Made by a program: the position numbers and the translations under genes. A stretch of DNA of 62,924 nucleotides, filler included, from Craspedostauros australis (lineage: Eukaryota): the NCBI GenBank assembly GCA_030167865.1. It is 19 parts of 19 records of this genome, joined end to end, with 100 filler letters (N's around TTAATTAATTAA, not from the genome) between each part and the next. Parts side by side here need not be neighbours in the genome. Positions count along the whole stretch, not along the records: positions 29,465 to 34,373 come from JALAGF010000431.1; 18 more parts are not named here. One strand, written 5' to 3'. A model generated the notes under the pieces. That model had not been told where the DNA came from. It saw only the letters and a list, made by a program, of their open reading frames with translations, and searched no databases. This document shows, in pieces, positions 3,817 to 59,729 of this stretch (positions are counted from its first letter, which is position 1; every line of letters starts with the position of its first letter).

Positions 3817-5811
3817 TTAGGCGTGCATGACGGCCTCGTCATCCTCCGCAACGTGATCCTCATCCTTCTTGTCGTTCTCGGTGTCGTTGCCTGGCGCCTT
3901 CATGGCCTCATCTTGCGGATCGAGGAATTTCAGATCCTCTTGCGAGAAGAGGGCGTGCACCAAGTACGATCGGATGGGCACGAGGGCGGCGACCATGGCG
4001 GGGAAGATGTATCCCACTTCGGAGAAATGGCCGATCGCAAAGATGGTGGTGCCGCAGGCTGCCTGGATGAAGGTGTAGAGCTGCGTCGTTCTCCATGGAA
4101 CGTTCTGCATGATGGGCGTGGTCGGACGGGCCTCGGGCACCTGCGTGGTGTAGAGTAACCGTTCCATGATTTCGTTACCGTCCAAGGCGACGATGCCGAG
4201 ATACAGGAAGATGCCGAAGAGCGATCCGACCGGGATCCATGACACCATGACGAGGGAGCAGAGCGCGACGAACATGAGCAAGGCCTGGAAGAGCGAACTC
4301 CAGCGCTGTTCCTGGCAGTCGGAGAAGATCTCTCGTGAGACACCGTCGATCATCTTGTGCTCGCGCTTGCACAAGGCGCGCACGTGCAGCGGTGCCTGTG
4401 GGATGAGCCCGTTGCCCGGCGGTACTCCGAGCAGGCCGCTGTGAGGTTCAAAAGGCATTACGAAACAAGTTAAGATGAATGGTGAGAAATGTTGACGAAT
4501 TCGCATGGATCACGTAGCATACTTCAATCCAACAACAGCTCCATAACAACATGTTCCACACCAATGCACAACTCAAGCATATCCAACAACAAAACACGAA
4601 CGAACGTACCACGGAATCATGGTGATACCGAGAATGAAGAAATCCCAATGATACGCCGGTGGCTTCTGAAGATGGAACTTGGGACTTTGCGCCATGATGC
4701 TGGAGACGTTGTGATCGATGAAGAAGAGGGCGAAGAACATGAATCCTGGAAACAGCGCACCCAGAATGCCCTTCGTCTCGATGCCGTCCAAGGGCGACGT
4801 GAACCAATCGCGGTCGGATGTGGGCTGCCAGTCCCATGGCGTCGTGCGGATATTGACGCGCTCCAGGGCGTCTTCGCCGTTGGCGTCCTCGAGGGCGACG
4901 CCCGGCAGGTAGGAGAGGGCCGTCGTGATGATCAAGGCGAGCATCATGTTGTAGCTGGTGAGTATTTCTCGCGTGAGCTCGGTGAACATGGTCCACTGCT
5001 CGGCGTGATGCAGCGTCCAGCAGATCCAGCACGTGGCGACGCCGATGAGGACGTTGGCGTAGGCCGCGCTGCGAATGGCCGGATCGAGGTTCTCCTCGCC
5101 CATCTTGGCCGGGTTGACGAGATCGCGGATGGATTCGAAGCAGAAGCTGATGCCGATGAAGAACTCGAAGATCTGCAGCGTGAATGGCGTGATCCGCCAG
5201 ACGAAGTTGACGAGGCCGGTCATGGCGGCGATGATGTGCATGAGGGCGGACCAGATGATGACCCACCAGTAGAATGCGAAGTAGTCGGCGTCGAACTGCT
5301 CCGCCAGTCCGTACGAGGTTCCCAGGAGCAGCGCGGTGGGACCCGTGATGCCGAGCACCGTCATCGCCTGGCCGGCAAAGAGCGCGTAGATGGTGCCGAT
5401 GATGCCCGCGCTGAGCAGGACCTCGGCGACGGCCAGGTTGCCTTCGGTCTGGCGATCCAGGACCTCGGCGAAGATGAGCGCGGGGATGAGCTGCACCACG
5501 AAGGCGTAGAAGGTGGCGTTGAAGACGCGCAGTATGTTGGACGGCACGCCCCAGTCACCCATGTACAGCGGTCCGCGCACCTTGAGATCGTCCACCATGC
5601 CTGTCATGAATTGGAAGATGGGCATGCTCTTGGTTGCGTTGTCCGCACTGTCTGTATTGTTTGTATTGTTTGCATTGTCCGCATTGTTGCTGTCGCCGTT
5701 GCTGTCCTCGATCGTGACCTGCTCCGTGACAGGAGAAGCGTCGCTGTCCGCATCATTGTCGCTGATGGTGACCGGCGACTGGTCTGTGATTTCGTCTTCT
5801 CTTGGTGGCAT
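3817..5811 (-). CDS. SLC4/BOR-family anion (bicarbonate/borate) transporter, 2 exons (5811-4610, 4438-3817), ~607 aa
   Basis: Multi-TM protein with GITGP, FFIDHNVSS, KPPAYHWD and PPGNGLIPQAPLH motifs typical of HCO3_cotransp/BOR1; the GTACGT...CAG intron 4609-4439 restores ITMIPC-GLLG in frame. Confidence 0.93.
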
Positions 5812-6379
5812 CTTGTGGTCTTCCAATTGCAATAACAGAGTGATACAAGTGACACAGTGACACAGTGATGCAGTGATAGAGAGATAGAGTATGGTACGAG
5901 TAGAGTGTTCTACTCTGCTTGTGTTGTTGTGTGTTGTTGTGTGTTGTTGTGTGTTGCTGTGTGTTGCTGTGTGTTGCGCTTTCTGATTTGTTGTGAGCGC
6001 AAACAGTGTGCAGCCGATTTGTTTTCGTGTTTGGCGGTTGGATGGAGTCGAAATGTGTTGAATAGTGTTGAATAGTGTTGTTGGCTTGGACTGAGTTCAG
6101 TTCCGTTGGGTACTGTGGTTGGAAGAGGAATAGATTCCGTCTTTGTTCTCGTCTGCAATGGCAGCTTTGGCAAGAAGCAGTTGAGCAAGAACGAGTACCG
6201 CAGTGTGATGTTGCCGAGTATCAGAGCGCGCGCAAATGCAGAGCGCGAGTTCGTTTTCCAATCTCCTTTTTCTCCTTTTGTTCTGTTTCTTCTCCTGGTC
6301 TTCTTGACGCTTCGTTCGGCAACTTCCGACGTCAATGCAGAAAGGCGCGATCAGCAACGATGGTCGGGACGATGATTGC

Positions 6380-6428: not shown

Positions 6429-7222
6429 GGCGGCAGTTGGTTTGGAACCTTTGGGAATGAATGAATGGATGAAGATGGGATTGCCCTCTCTCTGCGCGCT
6501 TTGCTGCTGTTTGTGACTTTGGGAGCTTTGTAGCCGTTGTGTTGTTGTTGTTGCTGTTGCTGTCGTCGTCGTTCCCGTGATGGATGGACGGGTGGGTGGA
6601 TTGGTGGTGGTGGGCGCAACGTGTGTGTCTCATGCGTCAAAGAAAGGCACGGAGAAAAGGGATCGTTGCAGCGCAGGCTCGAAGTAACTTTTTGCTTCTT
6701 CCGTTGTCCATTCACAAACGTGACGTGGTGCTATTTCAACTGCAACTGACGTTGTCAGCGGTTAGATTCGAAATTATCTCCATTTGTGCCGACAAATTTG
6801 GCTGCGCGTCGTGCAGCTTCCGTGGAGATTTGGCGTCACATCGTCATTTCTCCAAATGGATGGATGGATGTGTCGTGCCAACGAGCGTGTCGTGCGTTCA
6901 CAGAATAATAGTACCTTTCACGAAGTACTACTATTACATTGTTGGTTGAGAAGTCGATCCCAAAAGAACAAATCCAAAACACGGATGCCATCACATGATG
7001 TGCTTCGGCAGCCCAGGAAGGATTTAACACAACATCAGGTTCAGATCATCACAATCAGCATCATCTGCACCAACATCTGCAGCAACAGCATCATCCTCCG
7101 TCGTCTCTTGTTGTTGGTATCGGCGCAACCGTTGTAACACGGAAAGCATCTCTCACGATTCCCCGCTCCAACACCTCCACAAGCCTCCTCGTACTCATCA
7201 TCCACAATTGGACAAACCAACG

Positions 7223-9146
7223 ATGCCATCGGTTCATCATCTGTTCCTCGTGATGGCCTGGATCACTCTTTTCGGCGGTTCCACCACAACGCAGGCGTTG
7301 GCGCCTCCTCAAAGGCAGGCCGATGGCAGGTTGGGACATCAGCAGATTCAACAGCCACGCCATCAATGGCATCACCAGCATCACAATCAACAACAGCGTC
7401 GACAGCAGATGCGCCCATCGCTCGATCATGGCATCGCACTCACGACGAATGGATTGGCGTTGCGGCCCAATCCACTGCGCACGACGTTGCTGCAGGCCAA
7501 GCCATCCGATGACTCTGGATCGGCAAGCATCGACGAAGATGACAGCAACAACGCCTGGCTCTTCTTCCTCGTGCTTCCACTATGGGCCGTCCTCCTCTCC
7601 AACCAATGGTCGCGATATCTCATCGGATACGTCGTGGACTTCAGCCCCAACGCCGATCCCTTCCTCGCCATGAACGTCGCCATCGGCTTCAACGAGGGCC
7701 AGTACGCCATCTTGGCCTCGCTGGCTTTCACCATCCTCTTCGCCATCGCGTCGTTGGGCGCCGGCGCCTTGGCCGACCGCGTCAACCGCCAACAGCTCAC
7801 CGTCGCCTCGGCCATCGGCTGGAGCGTGGCAGGATTGGGCATGTCCATGTCCTCATCGTACGAAGAGGTCGTCGTGTGGCGCGTCGTCATGGGATTGGCC
7901 TGCGCCTTTGCCACGCCGACGGCCTACAGCCTCATCAATCAGAACGTGCCCAAGAGCCGCGTGGCGCTGGCCAGCAGCATCTACGGGACGGGCGTCGTGT
8001 TCGGTGGCGCCTTCGCATCGCTGTCGGTGCTGTTGGATACGTCGTACGGCTGGCAGACCACGACGCAGGTCGCGGCGCTGTTCGGGATTCTAGCGGCCGG
8101 TGTGGCCGGCATTTGCGTCAAGGATGAGCGCGACGTTGCGTCGTTGATCGATGTTGCGGACGATGGTGATGATGATGATGATGATGATGGGAATGGAGAC
8201 AATCCGATCTCAGAGTTCTTGACGAATGTCAAACAAGTCACATCGACCAATCGGGTCAAGTGGATCCTCATCGCCAGCGTCTTTCGCTTTTCGGCTGGTC
8301 TGTGCATCGGGGTGAGTCGTCGTCGAATGGTCGTTGAATGGTCGTTGCATGGTCGTCGAAGGATTGTTGGAGCGCATCTGCGGATGGATCAATGAATGAC
8401 GACGTTCTTGCAGTGATGTGCGATAGAGTAGTGTTGCTCCGATCTGCTCTGCTCTGATGCATGCAAATGGAGACAAAATCCAACTCACTTTGATGCCCAC
8501 GTTTGCATGTACTGCCAACACTCGCCATCATTCTCGAATCCACATCGCTCCATGACAGGTATGGGCACCACCCTACTTCCGACTTACATTCCCCGACAAC
8601 ATCGCCGACTACGCCGTCGCCCAAGCCGCCATCACAGGCCTCGCAGGATCTGCCAGTGGCGTCGTCGGTGGTGCCTGCGCTGATTGGTTGTCGTCACAAG
8701 GCGGCGACGACCCGGCAGGACGCAGATTATGGATCCCCGTCGTCGGCAGCGCGCTGGCAGCACCGGCTTGGTACTTCACCATGACGACGCAGGGTGGGTT
8801 CACTATGGCGATGACCTTCCTCGCCATCGAGTACTTCGTCGCGGAATGCTGGTTCGGACCCACCATCAGCACGCTGCAGGCCACCGTGGGACCCAAGGTG
8901 GGCGGCACGGCGCAAGGCGTCTTTTCCTTGACGGGTGCCGTTGCCAATTTGGCGCCCACCCTGTTGGGGTATCTGTACGGCCGGTCGGTCGATGCCGCGA
9001 ACATGGCGGCCGGTGCCACGCAGTCGCAATCGTCGTTGGTGGATCTGCTCGTGGTGGGGGTTGTCGTGTCGTACTTGCTCAGCTCGTTTGGATTCGCTAT
9101 GGCGGCCACGGCCAAGGAGACGCCGGAGCCGTCCTCGGAGTCGTAA
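7223..9146 (+). CDS. MFS transporter (spinster-like), probably plastid-targeted; exons 7223-8311 and 8559-9146, ~558 aa
   Basis: MFS motif A (GALADRVNRQ), about 12 TMs, signal peptide ending TQA-LAP plus a transit-like stretch; phase-0 GTGAGT...CAG intron 8312-8558 gives GLCIG-VWAPPYF. Confidence 0.9.
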
Positions 9147-10357: not shown

Positions 10358-10897
10358 TCACTTGCGCTTGAACATGGCCTCTGCCTTGGCCATATCCTTC
10401 ATCAATCGCTTTTCTTGTCGCTGTTGGCGTTCTTCAATGAGACCCTGCATGCCTCCAAATCGTTTGCGTGCTCGCCGCCGCAGTTCCGTGCGCTTGTACA
10501 TCTTCATCGGCGTCCAACCTTTGTGATGCGGATTCTCACGTTCTTCACATTCGCACACGGCCAACGTGCCCTGCGGCAAGCAATACATCTTCATGGCCTC
10601 CTTCTTCGTGACGAAGGACGATGCATTCTCTTCGAATTGTTCCAAGACATCGAGCTGAAGCAACTTGGTCTCTTCGTCATCAGCGTCGTCTTTGTCTTTG
10701 TCTTTCTTTGCTTCATCCTTCGTTTCACTTGTTTCGAGCTTGCGTCGTTTCTGCTGTTTTTGCTGTTGTTGCTCGATCTCTTGCTGCCGTTTCGCAGCAG
10801 CAGCAGCTTCCCGTTCTTCCCGTTTGCGTTTCTGGATGGCCAAGGCACGCTCTCGATTGCGGTGCATGCGATCCAGCTGTTCTTGCGTCAATTCCAT
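10358..10897 (-). CDS. XPA/Rad14-like DNA repair protein (XPA C-terminal domain, no C4 zinc finger); may extend to 11079 through an intron
   Basis: VTKKEAMKMYCL...ENPHHKGWTPMKMY...RFGG matches the XPA_C pattern; N-terminal LTQEQLDRMHRNRERAL resembles the XPA RPA-binding helix. Confidence 0.82.
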   Translation of the reverse strand: MELTQEQLDRMHRNRERALAIQKRKREEREAAAAAKRQQEIEQQQQKQQKRRKLETSETKDEAKKDKDKDDADDEETKLLQLDVLEQFEENASSFVTKKEAMKMYCLPQGTLAVCECEERENPHHKGWTPMKMYKRTELRRRARKRFGGMQGLIEERQQRQEKRLMKDMAKAEAMFKRK

Positions 10898-10902
10898 TTG
10901 GA

Positions 10903-11079
10903 TTATGCCTGAGCCGATGGCGGCAACGCCTTGTCACGTCCGGAAAAGAAGACAAAGGCCATGCGCAAGGCACCAAAGTAGACGCCCAGCTGTCCGAAGA
11001 ACCACAGATTCTGAGTGAGTTGGGAGGACGATCCGCTTCCGCCACCACCTCCCTTACCGTCGGGATACAAGACGAACAT
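10903..11079 (-). CDS. 58-aa single-TM microprotein, Tom5-like (candidate)
   Basis: MFVLYPDGKGGGGGSGSSSQLTQNLWFFGQLGVYFGALRMAFVFFSGRDKALPPSAQA*; MF start and a hydrophobic Y...LR segment recall metazoan Tom5 and plant Tom6. The stop lies 5 nt before the XPA ATG. Below the ORF-track cutoff. Confidence 0.55.
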   Translation of the reverse strand: MFVLYPDGKGGGGGSGSSSQLTQNLWFFGQLGVYFGALRMAFVFFSGRDKALPPSAQA

Positions 11080-24910: not shown

Positions 24911-27900
24911 ACTCTCCCTCTCAGTGTTGGGTCGTGATTTGAGTTGTGGTATCGATGAAAACTTCATCCTTCGTTGTTGTTGATTGTTGGTGGTTGTTAC
25001 CAACCCATGATCTTGAACCGTAAGTACTCGAAGACCATGATGGATAGTCCCTTCGTAAAGATGTCGGCGAGTTGCTCCGGCGTGGAGATGTGTTGGATGC
25101 AAATGAAGCCTGCCTTGACCCAGTACCAAAAGAAGTGCCACTTGGTCAAGAAGTGTTTGGTGCGTGCTGTCGGCTGATGATTGGTGGCGAGGGAAATGCA
25201 GGCTTGGTTGTCCTTGAAGACAGTGCACTGGAGGTTGGTGTGCAGCGCCATGTTGGTGCCTGCGTTGTCGATCACTTGTCGGATGAGCTGTTGAATAGGG
25301 ATCAATGTTCGCATTGCCAGAGAAAGAGCGGCGTACTCTGACTCCATCGTTGATAGTGCGATCTCAGTTTGAAGCTTTGATTTCCAAATGAGAGGACATC
25401 CACCCAGTGTGATGAGATAGCCGGTGCGTGACTTGACCGCCACAGGGTCTGTGCTGTCCTCTCGTTGGTAGAGGCCTGCGAAGTCAGCGTCCACGTAGCA
25501 CTTGAGATCGAGTTGCCCAGTGGGGCGAACGATGGTGCCCATGGTTTCCGTGTGCTTGAGATAGCGCATGATGCGCTTGACGGCCTTGGCGTGTGAACGG
25601 CGAGGGTCCTGTCCAAAGCGTGCGACTTGGGAGACTGCGAAAGCGAGGTCTGGACGAGTATTTGTTGTGAGGTACAGCAGCATACCAACGACGGAGCGGT
25701 AGTTCCACTTTTCGTTCATGGCTGGCTCATCCTTACACTGTCCGAGTGCGAGCTGGGTTGTTGGTACCGGGCATGGATTGCAGTTCGTCCTTTTTGTCGT
25801 CTCAAGGATCTTTTTGATCAATCCTGATTGCCGAAGATGAACAGTGTCCGCCTTTGGGTCGCGGCAGAGCTCAATTCCCAGAAACTCAGTGAAGCTGCCT
25901 TCCTGGGTTAGCTCGAACCTGAGTTCACGCATTGATACAATGAATTCATCAGCATCCTGCTTGGTCTTGGAGGCGATTCCTGCATCGTCAACGTAGAGGA
26001 CGATCATGATGTTGTGCTTGATGAACAGGCATTGCTCTTGATCGCAGGCTATGAAGCCGACTGTGATCAGGGCCCGGATGAGGTGCTCGTACCACAGGCG
26101 CGGAGCGATCGTTAATCCGTAGAGGCTCTTGCGAAGTCTGAGACAGGTGTTGGGTCCTTTGCTTGATTTGAAGCCGCGAGGGAGGTGGAGATGTACAGGC
26201 TTGTGGATGGAGGCCTGTACGAATGCGTTGGTGAAGTCGATTGATGTGGTTGTCCAACCCATCACGATGGATGTGCTCAGGAAGATGCGAACGGATGACC
26301 AGGCCACGACTGGCGCATAGGTGGATGCATCCTCATTCATGAGGTCTCTGCGGCAACACCAGCGACCCTTGTATTTCTTGATTGTCCCGTCTGGCAAGCG
26401 CTTGCGGCGGAAGACCCAGGTCCCCGGGAAGATTCGGTCGTTGACGACGTCGGCCTTTTGGATCTCCTCCCACGTTCCTTTTTCCGTGAGAGCCTTGATT
26501 TTCTTTTTGGCTGCTTGCATCCATTCGTTCTTGTTGTCGTCGCGGATTGCTTCGTCGAAGGAGAGGGTGTCAGGATCACTATTGGATGCCTTGTACACGG
26601 ATGAACGCTCGGCGATGTTTAGGTCGCCTCCTGTCGCGAAGTAGCTCATCATGTGTCCATCAACGTATGTTGGGAAGTTCGTTGAGTCTTGCTGCGGCTC
26701 GATGATGGAGACAGCGTAAGCATGTTGTTCGATGTTTGCCCATGCGTGTTCTGGGATACATGTTGCTGTGTCGAGGATGGATGATGGGTCGACTTCAAGT
26801 GTTGATCCGTTTTGATCGGAGGCTCGCGTTGCTGGAGCCTCCTTCAGAGGTGCCGTGTTGGTTTCGATCATTCCTTGGACGAATTTCTCAACTTCGAATT
26901 CACTTGGCTGTGGCCATGGCCCTGGACAAATGGTCGTGACTTGACGACGGAGCAGCTCGAATGCGAGACGATAGCGGTGATTCTCAGCGATGGCGTTTCA
27001 CACGGAGCGAGTCCTTTTGAAGGTGTTACCGCTGATGTTGATTTCAGGAGGGAGAAAACCTTTCATCATTAGGTACTCCGGATCCTGGTACGACCATGCC
27101 TCTGGTGTGGCCGACGACATGTAATCGAAGGCGTCGAAGCTGGGGTTCATGGTGCCAGTGCGGATGAAAGTGCTGAGTCTTCCAACGAATTGACCAATAG
27201 CGTAGTCCGTTGCTTGTCTCCTGAGGTCGTCGCAACGAATCTCACAGTGGAGGTCGACTTCGAAGTGTCTCTCCATGTCCGAGTAGAGATCCTCGTAGAT
27301 GTCTTGGAATGGAGTTGGTCCCTCCTCAGTCATGTCGTCAGGGTCTGGTTGCCACCAGTCGGCCATGTTGACGCTGGCTTCTTCTGTTTCAGTCGGCCTT
27401 GGCGCGAATGTTGGAAGGACGAAGTTAGTTGGTTGTGGATTCAAAGTGTTGAATCGAAGTCGAAGTCTGCGCAGCAAGTAGTGAGCATCCACCTTGAATT
27501 GGTGTAAGTCGATAGAGAGAGAGTCGCTGCCTTCGCGTTGGAGAGGTTCGATTGTGTGTAAGCAATCGACGACAGCTTGTGAGAATGTAATGATCGATGA
27601 AGAATCGGGGTGCAATTCCCTGGGTGTTGTTGCCTGTTCGATCTCTTCCATGGTAGCTACTGCGGGGCAGAAGTAGTAATCATCGGTATCCTCGTCGTCC
27701 AACCATGTGGCCTTGCCTCCCATGCGTGCATACGTGAATCGCTTTGGTTGTTTGCGACTTCTCGTGCTTCGAGGTCTTGTTGGCGTTGACTCGGGCTTCG
27801 GCGTGGTTGTTGTCGTGGAATTAGTCTCAATTGGCGTCGGAGCTAAAGGTGGTAATGGAGTTGCCGGTGCTGGAATTGGTGACTCCCGGAGAGGTGAATC

Positions 27901-29364: not shown

Positions 29365-31000
29365 NNNNNNNNNNNNNNNNNNNNNNNNNNNNNNNNNNNN
29401 NNNNNNNNTTAATTAATTAANNNNNNNNNNNNNNNNNNNNNNNNNNNNNNNNNNNNNNNNNNNNTTCAATGCTGTCGCAGTGATACGCCGACCATTTCAG
29501 TCATCCAATCATCGTGCCAGGCACCAAAACGACCTGGTTAGTGAACTTGCTCGGCCAGATTCGTGAATTGGCACTAAATCTGCACAAAAGTCAACGACAA
29601 CGACAACGACAACCACGACCAAAACTTTGGAAGTAGCACAAAATGAATGGCTGTTGTTGGTTTGCGCCTGGAATTGGTATCTTTTGCCGGGACTGTGGGA
29701 ACAGAATATCATTCTGTTTACGACGCCTGAACAGAATGATATTCTGCTCGCCGAGGGGGAAGTTCGCATCCCGCCCCCTGAAAAGTGTCTCTATCAGGTT
29801 ATGACTCCCTCGTGGGACTGCTCGGGACTGGGGGAACAGAATGCGAAAGTCCTCTATTGGGCATCGTTGTTTCGTCCATCTCTCTCTCTCTCTCTCTCTC
29901 GCCTGTTCTGTTCTTGTGCTGGGCTTCTTGTTCTTGTCGCAGCCATGTGCATTGTGCCAAAGCGCCATTGGCTGCTGCATTTGTGACCAAACACAAGTCA
30001 TAGGGACAACATGACGTCATGGGTTTTAGGTGTTGTTTGTGTGACAATCTTAAATAACGATGGGATAGCATTCAGATGTACCTATGACACGCGGGGTTCG
30101 GGTCAGTGCACGATCGAATCATCCGATCGGTACAGTGTTCGTCGAGGAACAACGAAAATGCCCACATGTGTGCTCACGAGGACAATGGGCCTACCGAGAT
30201 GAAACGAAGGACACAAAAAAGAGAAGCCCAATTCCAACCACAGAGGCAAAGCAGCACGCAGCGCACAACGGAGCGAGAGAGGCAAAGGGAGAGGACAGAA
30301 CACGACCACCAAACCCCAAAGAGTGGAGCCCAACACCAACCCCTCCGCACAACAACCAACGACCAACGACCAACACAACATCACGGACCAAGAGAGGGGT
30401 ACGGACGACAACGACGGAATCCATAGATCGTGTGACGAGTGTAAGAGCGAACGAGCTGCGCATTCGGATACCCGCACAACCCAACGAGAAGCGCGTTGAC
30501 ACTGACGATCAAGCGCGCCCTCTTCTGGTGGGATTGTTGTTGTCGGTGTTGTCGGTGTTGGTGTGACTACATCAACACCTGTGATTGCGATCGCCCCTTC
30601 TTGAACCGAACCACACAGCAGAGCAGAGCAGAGAGGCGAAAGGACACAGAAAGCCAAAGAAAGGAGAGGCGGCGCACAGGCAGACGCAAGGCTCATCTTT
30701 GGTGCATACAACCTACAATTACGACCATACCGAGTATTCCGACCATACCGACCACGCATCAGATCGTACTGGCGCGAGGACTTGGAAAGCGCAAACGGAG
30801 ACAGCCAAAAGCCACCAGGGGCCAAAACAGGAAGGGCGAGACGAAGGCGCGAACCATTGGCGGACACCTTCGGCAGCCGCGGCACCAGGATCGGCATCAA
30901 TACCACTCGAGCAGCAGTAGCTGTATCAGCGAAAGCCGCAACGAGAACAGCAACCATTGCGTCAACACGGACAGGAACAGCACGAACAGGAACCGCCACA

Positions 31001-33521
31001 ATGTGCGGCCAAGACCACTCTTCCGGGCAGACCAAACGCCTCTCTTCCTCTCTGAGAGAGCAGGTCCAGGCCATTTCCAATGCCATCCAGTTGGTCGTTG
31101 ATGGCGGCGACAGCGGTTCCGACGCGAGCTACAGCATGAAAGACGACATTTCATCATCACATTCATCACCACCGCCATTGTCCGTTCCGGGCAGTCTCTC
31201 GACACGGTACGTTCTTTGCCGCTGGAAGTCCTCACGTGTGTATGCGTATGTGTGTGTACAAGCGCGCGCCTGCCCGTTCGTTAAGCTCCGTCCACCATGG
31301 CGCACAGGAAAGAGCAGGTTGGGGATGACAACAGGCGACGCAGAAACAGCGACGAAAAGTTCGGATTCAGCAACCGCCGATCGAGAAGTCCGAGCTGATC
31401 TTCTTCTGGGTCTTGGCTTCTGTTGACACTTTTGTCGCCTTTCTGGTGTGTTCGTTCCCAGTTGGCCTACACTCTGTTGCTTGTGGCGACTTTTGGCTAC
31501 ACTCTATCCCTGCGAGGATCCTGCAGTATCGAGACCGCTGCGGTAGTCCTCTGCCACTACCACCACGCCGCACACTTCCTTCTTTCTCTTCACGAATGTG
31601 GCCTCGTTCATTTCGAGTGTTTTGCGCCTACCTTCTGCACCCTCTCTCGGTACCGTGTCCTATCATACACACCCCTCGAGCATTCCTTGCCAGATCCAAC
31701 ATCCACGCACTACCTACCATACTCCGGGCACCCTCCTCCTGACCCCTGACCGTCTTGCGACATCCCACGTCTCACCCTCCCGTCCTTCCTCACAAAACGC
31801 CACCACGTCTCCACCTCATCCTGCCCCCTGTACCTACCAATCTCCATCTCAATCCCAACCTCAGCAATACTACGAGTGCAGGAGGAACGCATAGCGACAA
31901 CGGCAGCACCAACGGCGATAGCACCAGCACAAGCATGAATATCGACCATCCACAATCATCGTTGCAGAACCTGATCGCCACCACGACGTCTGAAACGCAC
32001 AATGGCGGTCCAACCAAAGCGGAGAATTGCATACTCCCCACGCTGATACAGAACCACATGCCACTCACCACAGTCCCAACGAAAACGCTGCGCACGAGTT
32101 TGGAACCAATCGTCCAGGCTCTCAAGAACCTGGACGCCGAGGTCTTGCTTGATCTTCAGCAGGCCGAAGCTGGAGCAAGAGTTGCGAAAGGGTAAGTCGA
32201 CATCGTTGAGGTCATTTGTGTTGTTGAGGTTGCATGGGACCTGCGTGTGGTGGCATTCCGGTCCGTCCCAATCAATCGAAGCGAATTGGTGCGGATGCAG
32301 CACGCCTTTTGCACGCCCGTTCATCACAACTACACGTGGTGATTCGGGGTCTTTGAATGTACATCCTCATAGACACCAGCGGTCACCCACCGCCATCCGC
32401 AAGCATGATCAGCATGTTTCTCACCCCCCATCTTGCCTTACTCGCTGATGCGTACGTGCGTGCATGAATGCATGAACGGTTGCATTCGGGTTGTCTGTTC
32501 GTTCGTTCGTTCGTTCATTCGCTTGATTGGTTGATTCATTGCTTGCTTGCTTGCTTGTTTGGAATCACCCTTCTCGTTTCCATTTTGTCATCCCTGTTTG
32601 ATCTTGATGGTGACATGACGAAACACGAATTCTCAATGATCTTCTTTGCAAACGCGGAACCAACCTATCATCCCACCTCTGCATGTCTCTGCACTCAGGC
32701 GGTTTGTGAGACCAGTGTACGATGAAGTCATGCCCTCTCTGCCCAACCACGGCAGCACAGCTTCTGGCTACTCCTGCGTCCGCTACTTGCAGATTGCCGA
32801 AGTCCCCAACCAGTATTCCATCGGCATCTTCGTGTTTGCTCCGCATGCCAGGATACCGTTGCATGATCACCCTGGCATGTGCGTTCTGTCCAGGGTTCTG
32901 TACGGAGACCTGCAGAGGCTCTCCCTCGACCTGGCCCGGAATCAGTCGCTGTCCTCAGATCATTCCACCAGGATGGTGAAGCCCAGCAACGGGACCCGCG
33001 GTGCCGGTTTGAAGTCGCCACCGTCCCCCACAACACCGGTCACCGACCAACGGAGCCGGTACTCCATAGATTGCATCGCTGACATCCAGTCGCCCAAGCG
33101 CCAGAAGAACAGCCGGTGGCTCGGTAACTGGTGGTCGCAGCAGCAAGCCCCAGCGCGACGCGTCCCATCCAACCTGCCGGAAGGGTCCAAGCTCGCGTAC
33201 AAGAACCATGTAGACCATCTCGAGGCCCCGGATGTCACGATGCTCTACCCCTTCGAGGGCAATCTGCATGAGTTTGTGGCCGGTCCCAACGGCGCGGCTG
33301 TGCTTGATGTGCTGCTTCCGCCGTATGCCAACGATGAAGACAGAGACTGCACGTTCTACACTATCCACGAGTTGACGTCGACCTGGGCGAAGACTGAGAA
33401 GGAGCTGTGCTACATCGTCCCCACGGGACAGCCTGAGAACTTCCACTGCATCTCAGGGCAGTACAGGAACATTGGTGGCAGCGACATGCAACCGCAGCAG
33501 CAGGAGCAGGACGACATGTGA
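31001..33521 (+). CDS. Cysteine oxidase/cysteamine dioxygenase (PCO/ADO family); exons 31001-31206, 31865-32191, 32699-33521; ~451 aa
   Basis: IPLHDHPGMCVLSRVLYG, GNLHEF and VLDVLLPPY...RDCTFY are PCO_ADO signatures; two phase-2 introns (GTACGT...CAG, GTAAGT...CAG) join in frame. Confidence 0.88.
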
Positions 33522-34474
33522 GAGGGCAGGAACAACATCAGCTGCTGCCAGCGATGCCGGAGATTGCCGTCCCGCTCCATTCTGCTCTCGCAGCAAACGA
33601 GGATGAGGATAGGATGAGTCTGGCGAATCCTGTGGAGTATTGTGCTTGTACAGTAGCACTCTGGCTGGCGAAGACCACCGAGAAAGTGTCATACTATGGT
33701 CGCACAGCTCGTGATGCCAAGGTTCTGAAAATAGAAACTTTAGAACAGAATCGATTTTGCATTACCACAGCACTACTCGTACGTACGTATGACCCCATTC
33801 AGCGAAGTCGTGTAGTATCCTGCGGATTTGAGATACTGAAACGTGATATTTTTAGAACATGATTTTTCGTGTTGTCCATTAGGGTTAGATTCGTTTAGCT
33901 AGCTTCTACGACACAAAAACATGGCTGGCTTGTCTTCTCCGCAGACGAAAATGATGACGTCATTGACGGTCGATGTCAGACTGCAATGGTATCCAACTGT
34001 ATGATGGTGAAGTTGTGGCAGGTTTGGTATCGTGTTGATTCCTCACGTTGTTGGTGATTTGGCTCGGTTGGACGTTTCCTCCGTTGTGCGTGTTGTGTCA
34101 AACTGCACAGCGTTGGTGGTGGCATCCCTGCGCGTCGGCTGCAACAGCGACACTTGCGAATGCTACACAACATAACACCATGTAATGGAGCACAGTGACT
34201 TATCGTATGGGATGAAAAATATAGTATAATATTATTTTACACCAAGCTTAGTTTGTTAGTACAAAGTCCTGCGTAACCTGCTTTGCTCTGCTTGGACATG
34301 GGATGCCGAGGTCATCTGCTGAGCTGTTGGCATGGTGCGGAAAGAGACTGATGGCGGCGGTGTTGTTTACCTTNNNNNNNNNNNNNNNNNNNNNNNNNNN
34401 NNNNNNNNNNNNNNNNNTTAATTAATTAANNNNNNNNNNNNNNNNNNNNNNNNNNNNNNNNNNNNNNNNNNNNG

Positions 34475-58819: not shown

Positions 58820-59729
58820 ATGATGTGAATAACGTTGCTCTCTCTTCTGGCCATCGCGACTTGGATCTATGTATGTGATGGGCTTCACCTTGGTACGCAT
58901 CAGACAACTCCAATTCCGTCATCGTTCTCGCTATCGTCAGCACAGCATCCATCATCACCACGAGTGTCGCAGCCATTGCCAGCATCATTGGAGAACAGCA
59001 GAAGATCTTTCTTGCAGCGCACACCAGCTACTATCGCATCATGCATTGCCAGCACCGTGCTGATATCATCGCCATCGCCTTCCTGTGCCATAACCGCGCC
59101 TGTGGATACGACATCGCGTATGGTGGATGTTGGTGGTGGCTTCGATCTGCGATCCGGCAAGCAGCTCAAGACGATCGACGCAGTATTCCCAAAATCGATG
59201 GAAGGAACATGGAATTGCGAACGTGGTCGTGTCATCGGAGGGAGATGGTTTCCAAGACGAATCAGCGTGGAAGGCACTTGGCGGAGGAAGTAGGAATAAT
59301 GGCAAGCTCAAGGCGCCCGAACAGTACCAAGTCAAGTTCATCCCATCCGCACAAATCGGCGACGTCGAAGGTGTTGTGATGGATCGAGCATTCGAGATAC
59401 AATCTCGGGCAGGCGCGACCAAGATCTTCTGGGATGCGGATTCTCCAAATGTGTTGCGTTACGATGGGAAGATGATCACTGCCGTGCAAAGATCTGTGGA
59501 GCTTCCAAGCGACAAGGGGTTTGGTTCTGCCGAGCTGTTTCTGATTGAGGAAGGTCTGTTCGAACGCGCCGCGCAAGTCAAACGCAGATTCCGAAGGGGA
59601 TATGACGATGGCGGCAATCGAATTGTAGAAGGCTTGGAGATTATGAAGACGTACCGTGTTTTGGATGGTGTTGCTGGCACGGAGATGCCGACATCCACAA
59701 CCAAGTCGATGATCCGATTGACTCGGTAA
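58820..59729 (+). pseudogene. Disrupted plastid/thylakoid-lumen protein gene (DUF6816-like, tentative)
   Basis: ATG ATG TGA precedes an in-frame signal peptide; SRRSFL twin-Arg motif plus hydrophobic stretch; a frameshift near 59222 joins WNCER to VVVSSEGD...DRAFE...PN. Confidence 0.65.

Follow-up and report, generated by a model that had tools for sequence, protein, structure and literature searches.

The substrates known for the pathway of Cys/Arg N-degrons (ERF-VII, VRN2 and ZPR2; RGS4/5/16 and IL-32) start with Met-Cys, which is followed by a short tail, and in ERF-VII the residue after the cysteine is a glycine. They are regulators; we know of no oxidase that carries a Cys N-degron, and a literature search (supplements outside its scope) found none. 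The window analyzed here, a stretch of 62,924 nucleotides from the diatom Craspedostauros australis (GenBank assembly GCA_030167865.1), contains a gene of the same Pfam family as AtPCO2/4/5 and human and mouse ADO (7cxz, 7chj, 7rei, 7lvz), with the HxH...H motifs aligned. Its predicted product is the oxidase itself, with a probable N-terminus that resembles that of a substrate: a Met-Cys start, a short tail and a glycine after the cysteine. The explanation that we favor, at slightly less than an even chance, is a three-exon PCO/ADO gene whose translation begins at the AUG that ends a leader of some 800 nt devoid of AUG, and in which the cysteine in position 2 (Cys2) is most likely lineage-specific and has no demonstrated function. 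A first-pass annotation of the locus, made by a model from the sequence, had proposed that the enzyme may be its own substrate.

The identity of the enzyme comes from exon 3. The open reading frame (ORF) at 32700-33518 (+) matches the PCO_ADO domain, PF07847, with an E-value of 2.8e-33 and 115.5 bits (the cut-off is 27), and the domain is contained in a stop-to-stop ORF at 32640-33521. This bears out the assignment to the PCO/ADO dioxygenases that was made in the first pass. Three histidines of exon 3 (H55, H57 and H190) do not vary across 23 sequences; we take them to be the metal ligands of the PCO/ADO site. The HxH...H motifs align with those of PCO4, as seen in a sequence search of the PDB with the relative P0094, in which the alignment stopped short of the N-terminal helices. 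Inside the barrel, exon 3 also encodes a variable insert of about 85 residues with a W-rich motif. As judged from the sequence, the gene's identity as an ordinary PCO/ADO-type Fe(II) thiol dioxygenase is secure. By family membership, the enzyme would probably add O2 to a thiol, that of the N-terminal cysteine of other proteins.

Exon 3 matches 378 proteins, and those that are named come from diatoms (Nitzschia, Cylindrotheca, Bacillariaceae, Entomoneis and others). Among the best 120 of these 378, which were examined, the best non-self identity is 58%; the protein collection thus holds no close relative of the species. The 56 metagenome loci that were collected do not include a close relative of the gene either: the best is 48% identical over exon 3, and nothing in them matches exon 1. 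Diatoms clearly possess the family, and in diversified form: a profile of 18 diatom proteins, searched against 1.84 billion representatives, gives 2163 matches at E-values up to 0.001, the best 150 of which were examined.

The fold was compared through the AlphaFold model of the relative P0013, which is 58% identical to the window protein (mean predicted local distance difference test score, pLDDT, 69; predicted template modeling score, pTM, 0.69). The model has an N-terminal helix (residues 6-23) and a disordered stretch (residues 29-86). It matches PCO2 (7cxz) with a Z-score of 19.8, human ADO with Z-scores of 19.2-19.7 (for 7rei, Z 19.2, root-mean-square deviation 3.9, 224 residues aligned) and PCO4 (7chj) with a Z-score of 18.6, although the sequence identity of this relative to the solved proteins is only 24-28%. 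In these comparisons with ADO and PCO the model is covered from residue 2 to residue 354. The structural alignments begin at residues 2-8 of the model and, for ADO and PCO4, at residues 0-7 of the solved chains. They therefore start at the first residues, and the N-terminal helix of P0013 is helix alpha-1 of the fold.

The window is an assembly of short contigs chained by filler of the form N44-TTAATTAATTAA-N44, which occurs at 23 linker sites (e.g., 29365-29464 and 34374-34473) and places stops in all six frames; gene neighborhood across linkers is therefore meaningless. The PCO/ADO gene sits on a single 4.9-kb contig (29465-34373). It is composed of three exons on the plus strand, 31001-31206 (206 nt), 31865-32191 (327 nt) and 32699-33521 (823 nt), which are in frame and encode 451 residues starting with MCGQDHSS. 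Intron 1 (31207-31864, 658 nt, GT...AG) and intron 2 (32192-32698, 507 nt, GTAAGT...CAG, containing a run of short tandem repeats, 32487-32567) both interrupt a codon after two bases and have consensus splice sites. The donor of exon 1 is ACG/GTACGT and the acceptor of exon 2 is ...CCTCAG/C (CCAACCTCAG/C), while the donor of exon 2 is GG/GTAAGT and the acceptor of exon 3 is ...CTCAG/G (GCACTCAG/G). The three-exon model of the first pass, with its start at ATG 31001 and its phase-compatible introns, thus holds; its start of exon 1 stands, and the end of this exon is corrected to 31206.

Exon 1 encodes the N-terminal tail (residues 1-16) and helix alpha-1 (residues 17-35, 31049-31105). Exon 2 encodes a Ser/Thr-rich linker, which includes an in-frame ATG at 31935 (MNID), and helix alpha-2 (TLRTSLEPIVQALKNLDAEVLLDL). 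Exon 3 encodes the catalytic cupin domain, with the HxH motif at 32862-32870, the third histidine at 33267-33269 and the stop codon at 33519-33521. The MN[IVL][EDQ] methionine (31935-31946 in the window), which lies in the otherwise variable linker of Bacillariaceae-like relatives, may be an alternative start that gives a form without alpha-1.

The relatives support these boundaries. The site of intron 1, between helix alpha-1 and the MN[IVL][ED] motif, coincides with an intron-like read-through in the relative P0023. Exon 2 lines up with a helix conserved in the 19 relatives that were aligned, L..P...AL..LDA..LL, and joining it to exon 3 rebuilds the G.RV..G...PIYD block, which transcript-derived relatives show without interruption. 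In many gene calls made on the genomes of relatives, the start lies in intron-like sequence exactly there, immediately 5' of ..C.PIYD, so the position of intron 2 is conserved. Five public gene calls (P0074, P0078, P0083, P0092 and P0100) read through an intron at this same place (after ...G.RV.DG, continuing GYV...), which leads to spurious inserts in the deposited proteins.

Run X1, whose kind was guessed, gave two contigs that match the gene (31394-32594 and 32916-33764), and runs X2 and X3 gave none. The end of the second contig marks a weak candidate for the 3' UTR (3' flank, 33522-33764, +), a contig being unable to show the end of an RNA.

The nearest ATG upstream of 31001 on the plus strand is at 30199. 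The 802-nt gap between the two is the longest ATG-free gap on the plus strand of the window. The leader (30202-31000, +), a putative long 5' UTR, is T-poor (11% T), carries three stops in each frame and lacks ATG alone among the 64 trinucleotides. No shuffle that preserved its dinucleotides was free of ATG (0 of 5000; mean 8.4, standard deviation 2.0). The absence of plus-strand ATGs noticed in the first pass is confirmed. Such a depletion is the pattern expected of a scanned leader. The start codon (31001-31003) is the first ATG after it, in the context CCACAATGT with A at -3, and is followed by the codon of Cys2 (31004-31006). Among the in-frame ATGs, only that at 31001 precedes helix alpha-1, since the next one, at 31136, falls after it. 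Met-Cys-Gly is thus probably the true N-terminus, and we infer with good confidence that translation starts at ATG 31001. A 341-codon ORF lies opposite the leader (30106-31128, -), because the T-poor plus strand leaves few stops on the other strand; it matches no Pfam family, and a Pfam scan of the ORFs inside and opposite the leader found no family.

Folding predictions connect exon 1 to the rest of the enzyme. When the exon 1 peptide is folded as a separate chain with exons 2 and 3, it docks via residues 17-35 and 57-63 with an ipSAE (interaction prediction score from aligned errors) of 0.65, compared to 0.02 for the best of three controls; the contact agreement is at least 58% and the pLDDT of the partner is at least 51. 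The 0.65 mark is attained by 51 of 78 solved complexes and by 2 of 108 mismatched pairs. As ADO and PCO structures have already been solved, the docking shows a likeness to the ADO/PCO fold. A helix of the form R-[ED]-x-V-x-x-[LI]-[VI]..[LI] is found near the N-terminus of 12 relatives and resembles LREQVQAISNAIQLVVDG in exon 1. This similarity is weak. BLASTP with small words gives an E-value of 0.025 against P0013 in a set of 25 sequences, and with default settings it finds no match to P0013 at the helix. A hidden Markov model of the helix ranks the exon 1 ORF first of 156 ORFs, yet with an E-value of 0.18, and phmmer leaves it outside the 12 best ORFs. The exon 1 helix also resembles alpha-2 of relatives.

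Residues 1-16 (MCGQDHSSGQTKRLSS), which include a lysine (Lys12), precede alpha-1 and lie outside the confident interface, which leaves their freedom uncertain. Residues 36-140 are rich in Ser and Thr (34% S+T). The first-pass annotation had described a long Ser-rich N-terminal extension that would keep a degron accessible: the Ser/Thr-rich stretch exists, but in the modeled layout it is the linker of about 105 residues between alpha-1 and alpha-2 rather than a free extension, and the tail has only 16 residues. The predicted protein would therefore consist of this tail, alpha-1, the disordered linker, alpha-2 and the cupin barrel with its HxH...H motif. Translation from the first AUG past the leader would give Met-Cys-Gly-Gln, and removal of the methionine would leave Cys2 at the N-terminus.

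The first-pass annotation had named the conservation of Cys2 in orthologues as a check on its proposal. A tree of 99 rows and 337 columns (IQ-TREE quick search, with support from the Shimodaira-Hasegawa-like approximate likelihood ratio test) places the window protein in a starred clade of 15 rows (support 98) together with P0013, P0015 (Nitzschia) and Cylindrotheca proteins; the 14 other rows lack Met-Cys. This clade is nested in a starred clade of 37 rows (support 100), where Met-Cys is found in none of the 36 rows besides the window. Cys2 is also absent from all 12 relatives in which the N-terminal helix is visible, and from all 25 proteins, among the best 120 of 378 exon 3 matches, whose Met start reaches upstream of alpha-2. 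Five Met-Cys starts which do occur among these 120 were rejected, because the gene calls concerned open within the protein or within intron sequence.

In the wider profile search, a protein counted as full-length if it started with Met and at least 110 residues preceded its HxHP motif. Of 263 collected proteins, 80 look full-length, and five of these start with Met-Cys, four of them in one clade. The fifth, P0196 (MCAPHL), falls in another part of the tree, at the end of a long branch, and a search for relatives of its N-terminal 160 residues found none. In the sequences compared, Cys2 is thus not conserved in the window's own clade, and the only clade that keeps it is a separate one, in the Thalassiosirales.

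This second clade (27 rows, support 98) was named from a search in which the first 150 residues of P0149 served as the query and which identified Conticribra weissflogii, Thalassiosira spp. (T. profunda, T. exigua) and Discostella pseudostelligera. Fourteen of its 27 proteins (P0146, P0149, P0264, P0266, P0267, P0269, P0273-P0277, P0279, P0200 and P0205) start with M-C-[LVIN]-x-[TSI]-[MLVA]. The cysteine is invariant in all 14, while four residues are found in position 3 (L, V or I in 13 of the 14), eight in position 4 and three in position 5. The remaining 13 proteins are annotated from a methionine five codons downstream, and some of them are nearly identical to Met-Cys forms (P0280/P0281 to P0276, P0278 to P0279 and P0169 to P0277); the second methionine is absent in three Met-Cys forms. 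The public annotations of this clade thus disagree on which methionine is the start, and two starts five codons apart are possible.

The 56 metagenome loci were collected by a scan that took two motifs distant from the N-terminus as its seeds, and five of them reach the N-terminus. The four of Thalassiosirales type (L001:55-90, L002:181-216, L003:301-336 and L004:2486-2521) all read ATG TGT/TGC, three codons, ATG, with in-frame stops 2-7 codons upstream of the Met-Cys ATG in three of the four. At the second ATG, each of the four has G at +4, and three have A at -3. Two of them, L001 and L002, closely resemble or match proteins included in the count above (P0200 and P0274). L008, the fifth locus, falls in a different clade, and its start is Met-Ser. 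At the other end of the protein, 19 of the 27 C-termini in the Thalassiosirales clade have a cysteine at -4 (CSLS, CNLS, CNLY, CKNY, etc.); this CaaX-like end suggests prenylation or lipid anchoring in that clade. The window protein, which ends in QDDM, and the 14 pennate-type relatives that were checked have acidic C-termini without a CaaX-like cysteine.

The absence of Cys2 from the window's own clade is what leads us to favor a lineage-specific cysteine. In Arabidopsis, moreover, the confirmed PCO substrates amount to only seven of 246 Met-Cys gene models (PMC11773813). Several observations weigh against this explanation. A number of rows in the window's clade are gene models which begin after alpha-1, so that their true N-termini are not visible. 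The X1 contigs cover neither exon 1 nor the leader; they show no splicing, the first of them reads straight across the intron 2 donor, and they count as a blank for the gene model. The Thalassiosirales, a sister clade of the family, keep Cys2, and the Met-Cys start is therefore not always neutral on these enzymes. Lastly, in a human reporter screen nearly half of the Cys-starting N-termini behaved as ATE1-dependent degrons (PMC12377780), and an exposed Cys2 could thus well be oxidized.

These same observations bear on the proposal that the enzyme is its own substrate. According to it, Cys2, exposed after removal of the methionine, would be oxidized by the very enzyme that bears it, acting in trans or in cis, and then arginylated, and the protein would be degraded, with a low level in high O2 and a high level in low O2. 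Plant PCO1/2 are known to be subject to feedback at the transcript level, and this loop would be its post-translational counterpart. The depletion of the leader and the docking support the Met-Cys-Gly start; the tail lies outside the confident interface, and Lys12 is available. Removal of the methionine before a cysteine is complete (PMC11773813), and glycine in position 3 is not in the disfavored set (acidic residues, Ser and Thr; PMC12377780). In the Thalassiosirales, Cys2 is invariant in 14 of 14 Met-Cys proteins and in four of four loci while the next three positions vary, and the L, V or I of position 3 belongs to the hydrophobic class for which the human screen showed a preference (PMC12377780); in this position the window protein has Gly. 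The lack of Cys2 in the 36 other rows of the window's clade weighs, by the first-pass annotation's own test, against a conserved loop. The additional Met-Cys lineage, P0196, has no relatives by which to gauge conservation. If the window is excluded, having been chosen for its Met-Cys, two Met-Cys lineages among about 60 N-termini are not clearly above an estimated base rate of 1%. Within the window itself, a scan of 110 ORFs found no domain of ATE1 or UBR type; ATE1 is described as conserved across eukaryotes (PMC9884297). The literature search returned no paper on PCO/ADO or on the Cys N-degron pathway in diatoms; the first-pass annotation knew of no such system described there. Altogether, we regard a self-substrate loop as unlikely.

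A broader form of this idea is that a Cys N-degron is built into the PCO/ADO oxygen sensors of diatoms themselves. In the Thalassiosirales the context of the second AUG is the stronger one, and leaky scanning between the two AUGs could thus give O2-labile and stable forms of one enzyme, and the pennate-type lineage of the window would have acquired Met-Cys-Gly independently. This is doubtful, but if it were true, the abundance of the sensor would itself depend on O2 at the protein level.

It is somewhat less probable still that the protein does not start with Met-Cys, either because of an unseen upstream exon or because the main product is made from the in-frame ATG at 31935 (MNID...), via a transcript that begins in intron 1. 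The MN[IVL][EDQ] motif with its methionine is common to the window and seven relatives (P0011, P0013, P0022, P0023, P0036, P0048 and P0052), P0052 is annotated from this methionine, and a 339-nt ATG-free gap lies ahead of 31935. The first X1 contig begins at 31394, in intron 1, and X1 leaves exon 1 uncovered; as the kind of X1 is guessed and the contig shows no splicing at intron 2, its source may be either DNA or pre-mRNA. If translation began at 31935, the product would be without alpha-1, a helix that belongs to the solved ADO/PCO fold and is predicted to dock here, and the AUG depletion of the leader favors 31001. The suggestion that Cys2 serves otherwise, either by attaching the protein to a membrane through S-acylation or by regulating the active site as a tethered pseudo-substrate or metal ligand, recalls the RGS proteins, whose Cys2 serves palmitoylation and degron alike, and would suit the Thalassiosirales, where Cys2 is followed by L, V or I and 19 of 27 proteins also have the CaaX-like cysteine, but it is improbable for the window protein, which has no cysteine at -4 and has Gly-Gln after Cys2.

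Other ORFs of the window match other families. Two ORFs at 3820-6096 (-) match the membrane domain of HCO3- transporters (PF00955, E-values 1.3e-34 and 1.5e-46) and are the parts of a split, probably intron-bearing gene for an SLC4-type bicarbonate transporter. An ORF of 666 residues at 25000-26997 (-) matches a copia-type reverse transcriptase (PF07727, 8.1e-37). Also present are an ORF for a major facilitator superfamily transporter at 7028-8392 (+, 1e-24), an ORF with an XPA C-terminal domain at 10361-10933 (-, 5.6e-07) and a DUF6816 ORF at 59094-59726 (+, 8e-07).

Compared to AtPCO and ADO, whose fold (including alpha-1) is matched by the model of its close relative, the window protein differs by its predicted Met-Cys start, by the linker of about 105 residues between alpha-1 and alpha-2, and by the insert of about 85 residues in the barrel. 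The Thalassiosirales proteins belong to the same family, have the same architecture (alpha-1, linker, alpha-2 and barrel) and, in 14 of 27 cases, start with Met-Cys. They differ by forming a separate clade, by a second ATG five codons after the Cys2 start, by L, V or I in place of Gly and, in most cases, by a CaaX-like C-x-x-x end. We know of no description of an oxidase that itself has a conserved Met-Cys start. As the Thalassiosirales, which keep it, include laboratory species, the self-degron idea would be directly testable.

The way in which diatoms sense oxygen has not been described. If Cys2 is neutral, the gene is an ordinary member of its family; should the oxidase prove to be a substrate as well, it would be, to our knowledge, the first N-terminal cysteine dioxygenase regulated by its own reaction. 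Hypoxia feeds back on O2 sensors in the systems already known, since ERF-VII induces PCO1/2 and HIF induces PHD2/3. The outcome would be the same as in these loops, more sensor enzyme in low O2, but they are transcriptional, whereas the proposed loop would act via the half-life of the protein.

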